Assembly (NCBI GenBank): GCA_963751455.1
Contig: CAVVUN010000015.1
Coordinates: 416,001 to 480,000 of the forward strand
DNA: 64,000 bases
Source: Nitrospirota bacterium
GTDB lineage: Bacteria; Nitrospirota; UBA9217
Direction of reading: 5' to 3'
Made by a program: the position numbers and the translations under genes
The notes under the pieces: model-generated
The model's input: only the letters and a program-made list of their open reading frames with translations
Told to the model about the DNA's origin: nothing
The model's database searches: none
Part shown: positions 34,943 to 44,012 of the stretch, in pieces
Layout: each line of letters begins with the position of its first letter
Position numbering within the stretch: position 1 is the stretch's first letter

Positions 34943-35377
34943 TTACTTCCTGAACACCTGGTGGCACTGGACGCAGCCGTCCAGGAGCTGCTTCGACAGT
35001 GTCAGCAGCTGCTTCTGATCGTTCAGCTGCCCGGCCTTTGCAAGGGCCTCGAGCTTCCCGTGGAACTGTTTGTCCATCTTTACGAAATCTGCCAACCGCT
35101 GGTTGTTCTTCGGCAGCTTTACCGACCCTGCATGAATGCCTTCGTGCGTCTTTTCCCTGCTGCCGTGCATCGACTCGAGCGCCCTATGAACTTTCGGCCC
35201 GTCTCCCAGCGCTACTGCAGAGACAACTTCCCGGAATGCGCTGTCCAAGGCCGTCATTTCCTCGATCAGCGGATTTGCTTCGCTGCCGTGAACATGGTTT
35301 TCGTGGGCGAGGAGGCTATTTTCCCTTGAAAGCAACAGAATAGCAAAGAACATTGAAACGCGAAGTATATTTTTCAT
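34943..35377 (-). CDS. Cytochrome c' (class II) like periplasmic protein
   Basis: Signal peptide, helical body, C-terminal CVQCH..FRK. Confidence 0.85.
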   Translation of the reverse strand: MKNILRVSMFFAILLLSRENSLLAHENHVHGSEANPLIEEMTALDSAFREVVSAVALGDGPKVHRALESMHGSREKTHEGIHAGSVKLPKNNQRLADFVKMDKQFHGKLEALAKAGQLNDQKQLLTLSKQLLDGCVQCHQVFRK

Positions 35378-35424
35378 GGTGCCCTCCGTTTACCCCTTTA
35401 CAGGGTGATAGAAAAACCCGGATA

Positions 35425-35492
35425 TCATTGCGAGGAACGATTTTTGTGACGCGGCAATCTCGACGAGATTGCTTCCCTATGCTCGCAATGAC
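35425..35492. repeat. REP-like palindrome (TCATTGCGAG...GCAATCT/AGATTGC...CTCGCAATGA type)
   Basis: Nested inverted repeats visible directly. Confidence 0.7.
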
Positions 35493-35602
35493 TGCGAAAG
35501 ACCTGTTCGCAAGGATGGGACGGATAAAAGACTTTTGCAATTTTGACATTATTATATTAATTATAGCGAAGAGGAAGCTGCAAAAAGGGATTCTATAAAA
35601 AG

Positions 35603-35633
35603 AAAAAACCCCGGTGACTTGCATCGCCGGGGC
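35603..35633 (-). terminator. Intrinsic terminator of the rhodanese gene
   Basis: ccccgg(t)ga...tcgccgggg stem followed by a U-tract on the minus strand. Confidence 0.75.
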
Positions 35634-35651
35634 TAAAAAGGGGGAGTCCCT

Positions 35652-37058
35652 TTACTGCTTCTCGATTTTGTAGTTTCCGTCCTTGTCGATATCGAGCTTG
35701 GCGTTTACAAATTTGACGTTGTAGCCTTTTTCCTTGAGCTTATGGTAGGCCATTTCCGCACGCACCCCGGTTGAGCAATGCGTCACGATCACCTTGTCCT
35801 TCGGCAATTCCGAAGCACGGTCCACTATGTTTTCGTCAGGGATGTTCTTTGCGCCTTTGATCATGCCGGCACCAGCTTCATCCGTGTTCCGGACATCAAC
35901 AATGACTGCCTCGGGCCTGGTTCCTTCGGCAATTTTATTGAATTCCTCGATCGTTATTTCACCCGGCCGCAGCTTCGGCACGTAAACGATGGCCGCAGCA
36001 AGAGTTCCTGTTGCGACAGGATACGAGGCAGTCTGCCATGCGTCCATGCCGCCTGTAAGCAGGCTTACGCCGGTATAACCGGCTGCCAACAGCGACTTTG
36101 CAGCGGTCTTCGCAGAATCACCGCCGTTTTGGTCATAGATGATTATCGGGGGCTTCTTGTCTTTTGGCGGGAACTTAGCGATGTTGGCAGCGACGTCGGC
36201 AGCAGGCATTACTACGGCGCCCTTGATGAAGCCCTTTTGCGCTATTGCCGGCGGCCGCACATCGAGAAGCACAGCAGGAATCTCTTTATCGATAAAAGCT
36301 TCTTTCATTGATTGTACAGACAGTACCGTGTAGTTCTTTTTGGTCCATTCGGGAAGGCCTTCGTGGTACACCTTGACATTTGTATAACCGAGCTTTTCCG
36401 CCCGACCGGCGGAGTTAGGGCTCATTGCTCAGGTCATGCCCGCGCAGTAGTAGACGATGAGAGCGTTCTTGTCTTTGGGGAGTTTATCAACCATCTTTTC
36501 GAAGGCCGGGAACGGAATGTTGATGGCCGTAGGAATGGCGCCTTCCATGAATTTCGGCGCGGGCCGCGCATCGATCAGGAGATATTTGCCCTTCTCGGGA
36601 CCCTTGGCGACAAGCTTCTCTACATCCGCGGTGCCCAGGAGTTTTTCGGGCGCGACTTTGATGGGAGGCTTGGAAACGACGAGCGTTGCGAATTTTTTGC
36701 CGTCCTTCTCAGTGTACTCGACCCTGACCTCTTTCCCTTTCTTTATGGAACGCAGGGGCTCGTCCGGGTTCTCGGCCTGGACATTCCGGACCACGAGGGC
36801 GGCTTTATCGAACTTCAATATTTCGGTTGTTTCGTCGATCTTGATCTGTATCGACTGTGTTTTGTACGCTACGCTGTCGAAATTTCCCCGTAAACTTCCC
36901 GGCTGGGGAGTGTGACAGTTGCCGCAGACCTTGCCGATTATGGGCTTTGCCTGCGCGGCACCAGGTACGTTTTTGTCCTGGGCGCTTGTCTGGCTTATCG
37001 TTAAACTGAATACTAATGCTGCTCCAAATATGGTAATGCTTAAACCTTTTAACGACAT
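35652..37058 (-). CDS. Selenocysteine-containing multi-rhodanese periplasmic c-type cytochrome (468 aa, Sec at TGA 36429-36431)
   Basis: The two ORF-track ORFs are in the same frame, joined across TGA: YYCAGMT-U-AMSPNS; CGNCH haem motif; three rhodanese domains; SECIS-like hairpin. Confidence 0.85.
36390..36423 (-). promoter_or_regulatory. Bacterial SECIS-like hairpin
   Basis: GAGC..UCCGCC-GGUCG-GGCGGA..GCUC; loop G follows a 21-nt spacer after the UGA. Confidence 0.75.
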
Positions 37059-37112
37059 CTTTTCCTCCTTCATTATTGTAAAAAAAAAGAAAAAAACTAC
37101 AACATAGGTCTT

Positions 37113-37268
37113 ATTATAACTATAGATTTAGTATTGTCAACCAATATCTAATATCCTTAACAATAAGGGAATCATGTTTTTAAGTATGGAAAAAAGCTGT
37201 CCAATGACGGAGAATATATATTCCAAGGAGAGAAAATCCTTGACAATAATGGACTTATCTTATATATT
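37113..37268. promoter_or_regulatory. Divergent sigma-70 promoters (rhodanese and ffh)
   Basis: Minus: TTGACA(37140)-16-TATAAT. Plus: TTGACA(37240)-17-TATATT. Confidence 0.65.
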
Positions 37269-37297
37269 CAATATTCTTTTTCGGGGCGGTGTTTTCC

Positions 37298-38642
37298 ATG
37301 TTTGACTCCTTATCCGGCAAATTAGAGGCTGTTTTCAAGAAGCTCCGGGGCAGGGGCGTCCTTAAAGAGGATGATGTCAAAGAGGCCATGCGCGAAGTGC
37401 GCCTGGCGCTCCTCGAAGCCGACGTCAATTTCAAGGTCGTCAAGGACTTCATAGGCCGGGTCCAGGAACGGGCAATCGGCCAGGAGATCCTCAGCAGCCT
37501 TACGCCCGGCCAGCAGGTCATCAAGATCGTGCATGAAGAACTGGTGACCCTGCTCGGAACCACCGCGGCAAAATTGTACCTGTCGCCCAACCCGCCCACT
37601 GTTATTATGATGGTCGGATTGCAGGGCTCGGGCAAAACAACCACGGCCGGCAAACTGGCCAGGAACTTCAAGAAGGACGGCCGCAGGGTCCTCCTTGTTC
37701 CGGCTGACACGCGAAGGCCTGCAGCGGTCCAGCAGCTGGTAACCCTCGCAAAGCAGGTCGGCGTCGACGCGTACTCGTCTTCACAGACAGGACCCTGTAG
37801 TAATCTGCCGGGAGGCGGTGAAACAGGCCGCGTCGTCCTTGTACGAGATCGTCATCCTGGACACGGCCGGCCGGCTCCAGATAGACGAACCGCTGATGGA
37901 AGAACTCCGGCAGATCAAGGCCGGGGTAAAACCTCACGAGGTCCTGCTCGTGGCCGATGCAATGACCGGCCAGGAAGCGGTGAATATCGCCACGAAGTTC
38001 AATGCGGACCTGGGCTTCGACGGTGTGGTCCTTACCAAGCTTGACGGAGACGCCCGCGGCGGCGCAGCGCTGTCGGTCAGGGCCGTTACGGGCAAGCCGC
38101 TCAAGTTCGTGGGTATGGGCGAAAAGCTCGATGCCCTCGAAGCGTTCCATCCGGACCGGATGGCCTCGCGTATTCTCGGCATGGGCGACGTAATGTCGCT
38201 TATCGAAAAGGCGCAGGAGACCGTCGACCACGAAGAAGCGGTCAAGCTTGCAAAGAAGCTCAAGAAGAATTCATTCGACCTGGATGATTTCAGAAACCAG
38301 CTTAAGCAGGTGAAAAAAATGGGCGGTCTCGAATCGCTCATGGGCATGATTCCTGGCATGGGCAAGATGAAGCTGCCGGATGCCGACGTGAACGAGAAGG
38401 AACTGACGAAGGTGGACGCCATCATCAGTTCCATGACGCCGAAAGAGCGGGCGGACTACATGGTTATCAACGGGAGCCGGAGGGCGCGCATCGCAAAAGG
38501 AAGCGGCACCCAGGTCCAGGACGTAAACCGGCTTCTGAAGCAGTTTGCCGAGATGCGCAAGATGATGAAGTCCATGACCAGCGGCAAAATGGGCAAGATG
38601 GGTAAAATGGGCAGGATGTTCGGCGGAAGGATGCCGTTTTAA
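37298..38642 (+). CDS. ffh: Signal recognition particle protein (frameshift at ~37790, probable sequence error)
   Basis: [25 protein letters not shown], Met-rich M domain. Confidence 0.95.
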
Positions 38643-42091: not shown

Positions 42092-42177
42092 TAGCAGTGT
42101 CAAAGAAAAAGCACCAAATGTCAAAGATTTTACTCCGACACTCTGATACTTTGATTTCTTGTTCTGAGGGGATTCCC

Positions 42178-42635
42178 ATGATCGACTTGCTAAAAAAGAT
42201 CCATCTGTTCGAAACTCTCACCGGACCCGAGCTGGAGAAGATACTCAAAATCTGCGTGAAGGAGACCTTTCCGAAGGACGCTGTTATCTTCAAGGAAGGC
42301 GAACCGGGGGACCGGTGCTACATCATTACGAGCGGCGCAGTCCGAATCAGCAAGTTCATTCCCAATATCGGGGAGGAAGCGCTGGCCGTTCTCAAAAGTA
42401 TGACTATTTCGGCGAGATGGCGCTGATAGACAATTTTCCGCGCTCGGCGCACGCGATTGTAAACGAAGACGCCGATGTATTCGCGATCAACAAGACCGAC
42501 CTCGACAAGATCCTTATAACCGACCATGAACTCGCGTACAAAATATTCTGGACCTTTACCAAGACGCTGTCGAGACGGCTCAGGGAAACGAATGAGAAAC
42601 TGGCAAGCTTTCTTGCCATGTCCGGCGGCTTTTAG
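42178..42635 (+). CDS. Cyclic nucleotide-binding domain protein (frameshift at ~42398)
   Basis: IFKEGEPGD..YIITSGAVRI; YFGEMALIDNFPRSA in the next frame. Confidence 0.85.
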
Positions 42636-42694: not shown

Positions 42695-44012
42695 GTGACA
42701 AAGAAATCATTTAAAATAGGAATGGTAAGCCTGGGTTGTCCCAAAAACCAGGTTGACGCCGAGCAGATGCTCGGTGTGCTCTCAGGCTCGGGCTTCGAAA
42801 TTACTCCGGACCAGGGTGATGCAGATCTGATCGTCGTCAATACATGCGGATTCATCGAGTCCGCCAAGGAAGAATCGATCGAGGCCATCCTCGAAGCGAC
42901 AGGAATGAAAAAGAGCGGCCGCTGCACGAAAGTAGTCATAGCGGGCTGCCTGGCACAGCGCTACAAGGATGAACTTCTGAAAGAGCTGCCCGAGGCCGAC
43001 GCGGTGATCGGCACTGCCGAAATCGGCCGGATCAGTGAGATTTGCGAAGAGGTCCTGGAAGGAAAGAAACCGTTTTTCAGGGTATACATCGCCTGAGATG
43101 GTATATGGACTTCCCCGCCTGAGCACCACGCCTGCCCACTATCGCTATCTCAAGATCGCCGAGGGCTGCAGCAACCGGTGTTCCTACTGCGCGATACCGA
43201 TAATACGCGGAAATTTCAAAAGCAGGCCGTACCTCTCTATCATCGAGGAAGCGCATGCACTGGCCGCCCAGGGAGCGAAAGAACTGGTCCTTTTGGCTCA
43301 GGATTCTACTGCTTACCGGGACGGGGATAAAGATCTTCCGGCATTACTGCAGGACATGACAGCAGTCGCCGAAATCGAGTGGATCCGGCTGATGTATGCG
43401 TATCCCGGCCGGATCAGCGAGAAGCTGGTCAGCGTATTTGCTGAACAAGAGAAGATCTGCAAATATCTGGATGTGCCGATACAGCATGTAGACGATGCAG
43501 TGCTGACCGCCATGAACCGGCGAGGAACGGCAGATGATATAAAAAAGACGATCGAGCTTCTTCGAGCGCGCGTGCCCGGGATCGTTCTTCGCACTTCACT
43601 GATCGTCGGGTTTCCCGGAGAGACGGACGCGGCGTTCAAGCGGCTGCTGGCATTCGTGAAAGAGGCGGAGTTCGAGCATCTCGGAGTTTTTGTCTACTCG
43701 CCTGAAGAAGGAACACCTGCCCGCGATCTCAAACAGGAAGTTCCGCCGGAAGTTGCAAACGACCGGCTCGACCGGATCATGAAAGCCCAGGCCGGGATAT
43801 CGCTCAAGAAGAACCGAGCCTTGATCGGAGCAAGGCGAAGAGTCCTTGTCGACGGGATCGAGGACATGGCGCTTATCGGCAGGCTTTCGACGCAGGCGCC
43901 GGACATCGACGGAGTGGTGTATCTCTCCAAAACCGAAGCAGCGCCGGGCCAGTTCGTGGAAGTCACGATCATGGATGCGACAGAGTATGACCTGGTGGGA
44001 AAGGCACAGTAG
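42695..44012 (+). CDS. rimO: Ribosomal protein S12 methylthiotransferase (frameshift at ~43080)
   Basis: SLGCPKN, NTCGFI..AKEES, KIAEGCSNRCSYC radical-SAM motif, APDIDG TRAM domain. Confidence 0.93.

Follow-up and report, generated by a model that had tools for sequence, protein, structure and literature searches.

A form 1 rhodanese gene with a very likely selenocysteine codon and a putative haem c site in a Nitrospirota bacterium

Gene structure and domain organization

The 64,000-nt stretch of DNA analyzed here (the window; positions 416,001 to 480,000 of contig CAVVUN010000015.1, assembly GCA_963751455.1) belongs to a Nitrospirota bacterium and carries on its minus strand a gene for a triple-domain rhodanese that very likely contains selenocysteine (Sec). 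The gene (35652..37058) specifies 468 residues, made up of a predicted signal peptide, a CxxCH motif, a small beta-barrel and three rhodanese domains. Positions 37058-35652 constitute a single 468-codon frame that ends in TAA (35654-35652) and whose sole internal stop is a TGA at codon 210 (36429..36431). Gene calling with translation table 11 splits this frame into two open reading frames (ORFs) of 214 and 257 residues. An earlier note on this DNA had joined the two ORFs through the TGA and had placed the motifs YYCAGMT-U-AMS, CGNCH, IYDQNG and HCSTG along the product; the frame is indeed continuous and each motif was found where the note put it. Residues are numbered from the ATG at 37058, which was preferred over an in-frame ATG at 37073 because an AGGAGG ribosome-binding site (37064..37069, minus strand) lies 5 nt 5' of it.

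Pfam recognized three Rhodanese stretches in the protein (E 4e-49), and an alignment-based model with a mean predicted local distance difference test score (pLDDT) of 88.4 began with a disordered leader and the CxxCH segment, followed by a beta domain of six strands and the three rhodanese domains. Residues 1-26 (36981..37058) are predicted to be a signal peptide, as they include the top hydrophobic stretch of the protein, have low pLDDT and are matched by an Ala-rich cleavage region in homologues; it is from this hydrophobic N-terminus that we infer export. The first rhodanese domain (36336..36632) bears the loop C205-x-G-x-x-U210-x-x-S, with the C205 codon at 36446-36444. In the second (36000..36329), Asp309 replaces the active Cys (IYDQNG, 36140-36123), and the third (35706..35963) has a canonical HCSTGVR loop with C428 (HCSTG, 35780-35766).

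A protein search in which 7998 candidates were scored returned 1010 relatives, and 120 full-length homologues were listed and aligned. Among these 120 listed matches, the position of Asp309 was Asp in 112, and Cys was not among its commonest residues, while the loop of domain 3 had its Cys and Gly in all 120 and its Arg in 117. The alignment thus supports an inactive middle domain and an intact third one, in agreement with the exported triple rhodanese that the earlier note had described.

That note had overlooked the small all-beta domain between the CxxCH motif and the first rhodanese domain (residues ~55-129; 36672..36896). In the model it consists of six strands in an OB-fold-like order and one short helix, at a pLDDT of 83-91; a single-sequence model of the N-terminal region reached a pLDDT of 42. 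For a profile built from 67 N-terminal segments, no PDB entry was a significant match (best E 0.065), nor was any Pfam family, DUF5666 appearing for 3 of the 67 segments at E 0.027. Likeness of the barrel to a small protein encoded beside a relative's rhodanese gene (locus L147, see below) was not significant (probability 4.8%). Sequence and fold searches with the whole model retrieved rhodanese-fold chains only, none with the same domain packing, and since all matches were of this kind the whole-model fold searches are uninformative on the barrel.

Probable selenocysteine decoding of the UGA

The residue aligned with the UGA was Cys in all 120 of the matches listed, and the upstream Cys (C205) was present in 119. 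Of 110 genomic loci examined, which include the window itself and represent some genomes twice, 109 span the site; 48 of these have TGA there and 61 have TGC. The gene occurred in 65 genomes of a 301-genome sample of the host phylum, with exactly one TGA in 64/74 matches, and in 40 of 401 genomes of a second phylum, with one TGA in 30/42. Where its location was checked, the TGA fell at the equivalent of codon 210, with one exception (G560), which has TGC there. Among named relatives, uncultured Nitrospirota come closest; the Cys forms fetched were mostly from Betaproteobacteria.

The host has selA, selB, selD and a canonical tRNA-Sec, all over cut-off. selA and selB are adjacent, SelB gave one single match over cut-off, and selD carries a TGA of its own plus a frame break in the assembly. 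selA was likewise found in 62/64 relatives that carry the rhodanese gene, the two genomes without it being 86% and 74% complete; three of the four Cys-form genomes tested gave no SelB match. Thus both the search for Sec machinery and the alignment of homologues that the earlier note had proposed as checks bear out its reading of the codon.

The note had also pointed to a hairpin resembling a bacterial selenocysteine insertion sequence (SECIS). Its apical part, UCCGCC-GGUCG-GGCGGA with a G-led loop (36397..36413, minus strand), begins 15 nt 3' of the UGA. In isolation the hairpin is weak: its z-scores against shuffled sequences were -1.29 (52-mer) and -1.72 (29-mer), and among 5000 synonymous recodings 228 folded equally well and 1155 yielded a 6-bp stem with a G loop. 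Across the family, however, the element tracks the TGA, as all pairs of a fixed 5-bp stem were present in 62 of 66 distinct TGA-containing 45-mers and in 0 of 64 with a Cys codon, kin among these not being independent. In a quick tree (68 rows, midpoint-rooted), Cys forms were found at five places among the TGA rows. Taken together, the codon pairing in homologues, the host machinery and the SECIS make it very likely that the UGA at codon 210 is read as Sec.

The haem-type motif

CGNCH (C45, C48 and H49; 36912..36926, minus strand) is a putative attachment site for a c-type haem. Its Cys, Cys and His were kept in 119, 120 and 120 of the 120 matches listed. After partial, N-containing, duplicate and mis-aligned loci were dropped, 134 distinct full-length members could be counted, of which 118 have CX2CH, 10 have CX4CH and 6 have neither, so that the motif noted earlier is conserved in one or other spacing in 128/134. 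In the quick tree the CX4CH rows group as a single clade. Hydrazine dehydrogenase binds haem at a CX4CH motif (PMC6469936). In the present family the spacer has changed while Cys-His was kept, which is the behaviour expected of a haem site. The host has three loci for CcsA-type haem attachment. In the family comparison no His or Met was specific to members with the motif, although the rows lacking the motif number just six; hence either Cys205 or Sec210 could act as sixth ligand, or there could be no such ligand. We consider it likely from these patterns that a c-type haem is bound at CxxCH. In the literature searched we found no remark on the haem motif of this family, though supplements to the catalogues may contain one.

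Relation to known rhodaneses

A 2026 review distinguishes five forms of rhodanese selenoprotein, of which form 1 is defined by a UxxS motif and represented by WP_010941598.1. The protein described here has a PF00581 domain, the sequence U-A-M-S and one TGA in its gene, as form 1 does. WP_010941598.1, as given in the deep-Sep supplement, shares the leader, the beta domain, the YC-x-G-x-T-U-x-x-SP loop, the Cys-less middle domain and the HCSTG third domain. By eye from the printed sequence, 22/38 residues are identical beginning at YC in the Sec loop, and 9/10 in the loop of the third domain. It lacks a CxxCH, however, whereas the gene here has CGNCH. A haem-less relative that by eye resembles WP_010941598.1 was 39% identical to our protein over 392 columns (E 8e-79); WP_010941598.1 itself was not among the results of the protein searches or cluster look-ups.

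Versions with a haem motif have also been catalogued, since supplementary file 1 of the deep-Sep work lists under form 1 two Sec sequences in which CMQCH takes the position of CGNCH; rhodaneses are unmentioned in its main text. A fragment with the same loop, 25/38 identical by eye, is listed as 'Sulfurtransferase COG2897' in the supplement of a 2008 ocean-metagenome study, and a 2016 survey counted 28 such selenoproteins in 23 organisms. The literature searched held catalogues by prediction only, and in it we found no biochemical or haem study of the family. The 'hidden selenoprotein' of the earlier note is accordingly a real Sec gene whose novelty was overstated: the family and its haem-motif Sec form are already on record as predictions, and this is not a new selenoprotein family. 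No NCBIfam model reaches its cut-off for it. Because of this, and because table 11 splits the gene in most of the Nitrospirota and deltaproteobacteria that carry it (64/74 and 30/42 matches with one TGA), a periplasmic protein that is common among sulfur-cycling anaerobes has been overlooked.

The nearest named models describe other proteins. TsoB (NF045694), the form 5 rhodanese/DsbD fusion with a UxxxxU motif, has the same five-residue spacing of chalcogens, and its model matches domain 1 (E 7.6e-21). Membership was rejected, as the match scored 73.8 bits, short of the 805-bit cut-off, and covered only model positions 44-160 of 572; unlike TsoB, our protein has no DsbD part and one Sec instead of two. 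The form 3 model rhodanese_LYCAU (NF041203) was likewise rejected at 85.4 against 115 bits, the loop being C-x4-U and not CxU. Top structure matches were YnjE, EanB and a Pseudomonas protein (1yt8), which also have multiple rhodanese domains per chain but differ in packing (TM-score ~0.2, overall rmsd 10-22 A), are 16-24% identical and have no Sec loop.

Other variants of the loop were noted in passing. Two paralogues, at loci L129 and L180 (genomes G431 and G250), have C-x-G-G-C-x-S, which is one residue shorter than C-x4-U. The host itself encodes two further rhodaneses with an in-frame TGA, each followed by a hairpin. The one on contig C15 (1669106-1669387, plus strand) is a single exported domain whose loop is C-x4-U-x-x-S, and the one on contig C2 (598672-598950, plus strand) is a UxxG form joined to another domain.

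Proposed function and alternatives

With moderate confidence, we propose that the gene is a member of rhodanese selenoprotein form 1 and that its product is a likely periplasmic, haem c-tagged carrier of polysulfide sulfur, similar to Sud, that feeds a sulfur-respiring enzyme. We favour a Sud-like carrier because of Psr-like neighbours in relatives, the MccSep genes of the host and a moderate co-occurrence with MccSep. Sud of Wolinella succinogenes acts with PsrABC (PMC2628731), and has in common with our protein the rhodanese fold, export (inferred here) and the proposed role beside polysulfide reductase. According to its PDB entry (1qxn) it is a 137-residue single-domain homodimer, whereas the present protein has three domains and a barrel. 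Sud matched domain 3 in a profile comparison (E 3.8e-4) and reached Z 11.7 in the fold search, and its trait of an exported rhodanese with an active Cys has a counterpart in the conserved C205 and C428 of a presumably exported protein. We know of no Sec, haem motif or barrel in Sud.

Neighbours were surveyed over 40 wider loci by scanning 140 of 197 selected neighbouring proteins, five of the 140 coming from other loci. At 2 of 20 distant loci, both of Cys forms, the rhodanese gene stands directly before a gene for a molybdopterin subunit, followed by an NrfD/PsrC gene; the best NCBIfam match of the molybdopterin subunit was PhsA, under cut-off.

MccSep/ExtKL (NF040886) is also periplasmic and uses a His/Cys haem and Sec, together with Cys, to cleave S-S bonds in polysulfide reduction (PMC13510729). 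It has five haems, an unrelated fold and demonstrated activity, and NF040886 was absent from the matches of our rhodanese. The Discussion of the MccSep paper (2026) allows for additional components of periplasmic sulfur transfer and leaves open the route by which polysulfide reaches the reductases (PMC13510729), and the present family is a candidate for that route. The host encodes three MccSep/ExtKL multihaem selenoproteins with one TGA each (contig C15, 1355435-1356709; C7, 6495-7718; C1, 52374-53594) and has dsrAB, while its PsrA-like matches are distant only (24-28% identity). MccSep family matches occurred in 98/301 genomes of the phylum sample. Among selA-positive genomes MccSep accompanied the rhodanese gene in 46/62, versus 43/82 without the rhodanese (p=0.009), and within the host's family of 63 genomes the corresponding figures were 24/27 and 21/36 (p=0.011); kin are not independent in either comparison.

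A possible mechanism can be outlined from the chemistry of rhodaneses and MccSep. SelB would recognize the SECIS and Sec would be inserted at position 210; the protein would then be exported, and CcsA-type machinery would attach haem at C45/C48. The selenolate of Sec210 would attack an S-S bond of polysulfide, after which the sulfane sulfur could pass to Cys205, five residues away, or Cys205 could form a Se-S bond with Sec210. A second persulfide site, for passing sulfur onward, would be provided by Cys428 in domain 3, while domain 2 and the barrel may be a scaffold or docking surface, and the haem would hold the Cys/Sec pair in the reduced state. The acceptor would likely be MccSep in the host and PsrA in some Cys-form relatives, as with Wolinella Sud. 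The roles of the selenolate, Cys205, Cys428 and the haem as reductant are by analogy, and the natural Cys forms offer versions that can be expressed without Sec machinery.

Several observations weigh against a Sud-like carrier. No member's activity has been measured in the literature searched, and although haem is dispensable for a pure carrier, the motif is retained in 128/134 members. Many Cys forms occur in Betaproteobacteria, where sulfur reduction is not expected. No MccSep match was found in 17/64 genomes that bear the rhodanese, and 50 genomes have MccSep but no rhodanese. At most loci no neighbour of the rhodanese gene relates to sulfur: in close relatives it sits by itself next to ffh, and of the 140 neighbours scanned the majority were housekeeping or regulatory proteins.

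The retention of the motif would be explained if the protein were itself a haem-dependent redox enzyme, whose haem packs on the Cys205/Sec210 loop, perhaps with the Cys or Sec as an axial ligand, and which breaks or makes S-S bonds by itself, as a rhodanese-fold analogue of MccSep, TsdA or SoxA. The monophyletic switch to CX4CH in 10 members, which retains the CH, fits such an enzyme, as does the finding that no haem-specific His or Met competes with Cys205 or Sec210 as sixth ligand, and MccSep provides a precedent for a His/Cys haem with Sec acting on polysulfide (PMC13510729). However, six members and the catalogued representative are without the motif and keep the full C-x4-U/C loop and C428, from which it appears that the loop works without haem. 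Moreover, a single haem can hold just one electron, and the neighbouring genes include no conserved electron donor. We regard such an enzyme as unlikely, while giving it more weight than the alternatives that follow. Similarly doubtful is a broader proposal, that the haem-bearing majority forms an unrecognized periplasmic haem-selenium class in which one c-type haem is wired to the Cys-x4-Sec loop, with MccSep-like S-S chemistry on a rhodanese fold and a UGA possibly switched between Sec and Cys by a second UCA tRNA; in such a class, the CX4CH variant would tentatively be placed in thermophile-like lineages.

It is rather improbable that the substrate is instead selenium or a metalloid oxyanion, the protein being a periplasmic binder of selenite or selenide or a C-x4-U reductase. 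The rhodanese fold includes As/Sb reductases and Cdc25-type enzymes (2j6p matched at Z 12.7), and the host has a haem-less double rhodanese with a Cys-form loop beside a second UCA tRNA and a gene that we take to be YedF-like. Geobacter ExtH is a rhodanese-like protein from a cluster tied to selenite reduction, but the NCBIfam ExtH model gave no match to our protein. The sole enzyme neighbours found in operon position are of Psr/Phs type, and Cys forms reside in genomes without a SelB match (3/4 tested).

The second UCA tRNA (host contig C13, 3947-4041, minus strand), which the earlier note had missed, has G1:C72, a long variable arm and a U discriminator. It lies downstream of the exported double rhodanese, whose loop is C-x4-C, and of genes that we presume to be dehydratase/activator-like and YedF-like. 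DNA similar to it was found in 21/63 genomes of the family, and five more copies that were checked all have UCA. A selC* tRNA-Cys with these features has been described and reported from Nitrospirae, and that of a Desulfococcus species suppressed UGA in E. coli (PMC5389517). At least under selenium shortage, then, a putative selC*-like tRNA of Cys-type identity might decode the UGA as Cys, and the product would be partly a Cys protein. This seems improbable as well, since the host has a canonical tRNA-Sec with full Sec machinery and just one SelB over cut-off, and since 42/63 genomes of the family gave no match to the second tRNA.

Finally, the TGA could in principle be a genuine stop or stem from faulty assembly, leaving two genes or a pseudogene, but although ffh, selD and dsrA are broken in frame in the same assembly and an ATG lies two codons past the TGA, this idea is hardly tenable, as one TGA is present in 64/74 and 30/42 matches of two phyla, which excludes assembly error as its cause, a split would sever a rhodanese domain within its active loop, and the SECIS accompanies the TGA versions.

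Neighbouring genes and other features of the locus

Downstream on the same strand lies a gene for a cytochrome c'-like protein of 144 aa with a C-terminal CVQCH (34943..35377), which is a neighbour and probably not a partner. The earlier note had placed a cytochrome c' past a terminator and proposed functional wiring between it and the rhodanese. The same-strand gene and a hairpin with a U-run (35595..35634, minus strand; fold z -3.82) do exist, but the match to Pfam Cytochrom_C_2 was 24.6 bits, under the cut-off of 26.5, and the hairpin was absent from the list of a pattern scan for terminators. The wiring was not upheld. In the host's family the rhodanese was found in 27 genomes, a cytochrome c' in 34 and both in 16; co-occurrence was at the level of chance (16/27 vs 18/36, p=0.61), and among the 27 rhodanese-bearing relatives the cytochrome c' was adjacent in 3 (G194, G239 and G254) and not found in 11. 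Synteny and co-occurrence, together with the terminator-like hairpin in between, reject it as a partner, and the connection is incidental.

The stable neighbour in close relatives is instead a divergent block beginning with ffh, confirmed as SRP54, which we take to be ffh-rpsP-rimM-trmD-rplS; the downstream gene is variable. Divergent from ffh, a predicted sigma-70 promoter, based on consensus match only (TTGACA-16-TATAAT, 12/12; 37113..37140, minus strand), lies 55-82 bases upstream of the rhodanese start, and the gene looks monocistronic.

At the two Cys-form loci with a molybdopterin subunit, a DUF3373 gene precedes the rhodanese, with a gene for a small exported protein between the two. 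The small protein, a beta protein that ends in KKTAGC (L146, 5433-5876; L147, 5612-5932), gave no match in Pfam or NCBIfam searches, and its C-terminal Cys arm could carry sulfur. In three small-genome Nitrospirota the rhodanese is flanked by further rhodaneses, and in two of the three it also lies beside a multihaem cytochrome. In 7 loci, betaproteobacterial Cys-form genes (e.g., L113, 9003-10388) have FadL/TodX-type porin genes in their vicinity, and several such loci have what we assume to be isc or RuBisCO-like genes nearby.

Within the window, a long inverted repeat (35440-35500; fold z -2.62) occupies the gap between the terminator-like hairpin and the cytochrome c'-like gene, and is possibly a small mobile repeat. 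Frame breaks occur in ffh (37289-38642), a cyclic-nucleotide-binding gene (42097-42635) and a rimO-like gene (42695-44012), as well as in selD and dsrA on contig C2, which suggests indel errors in the host assembly.

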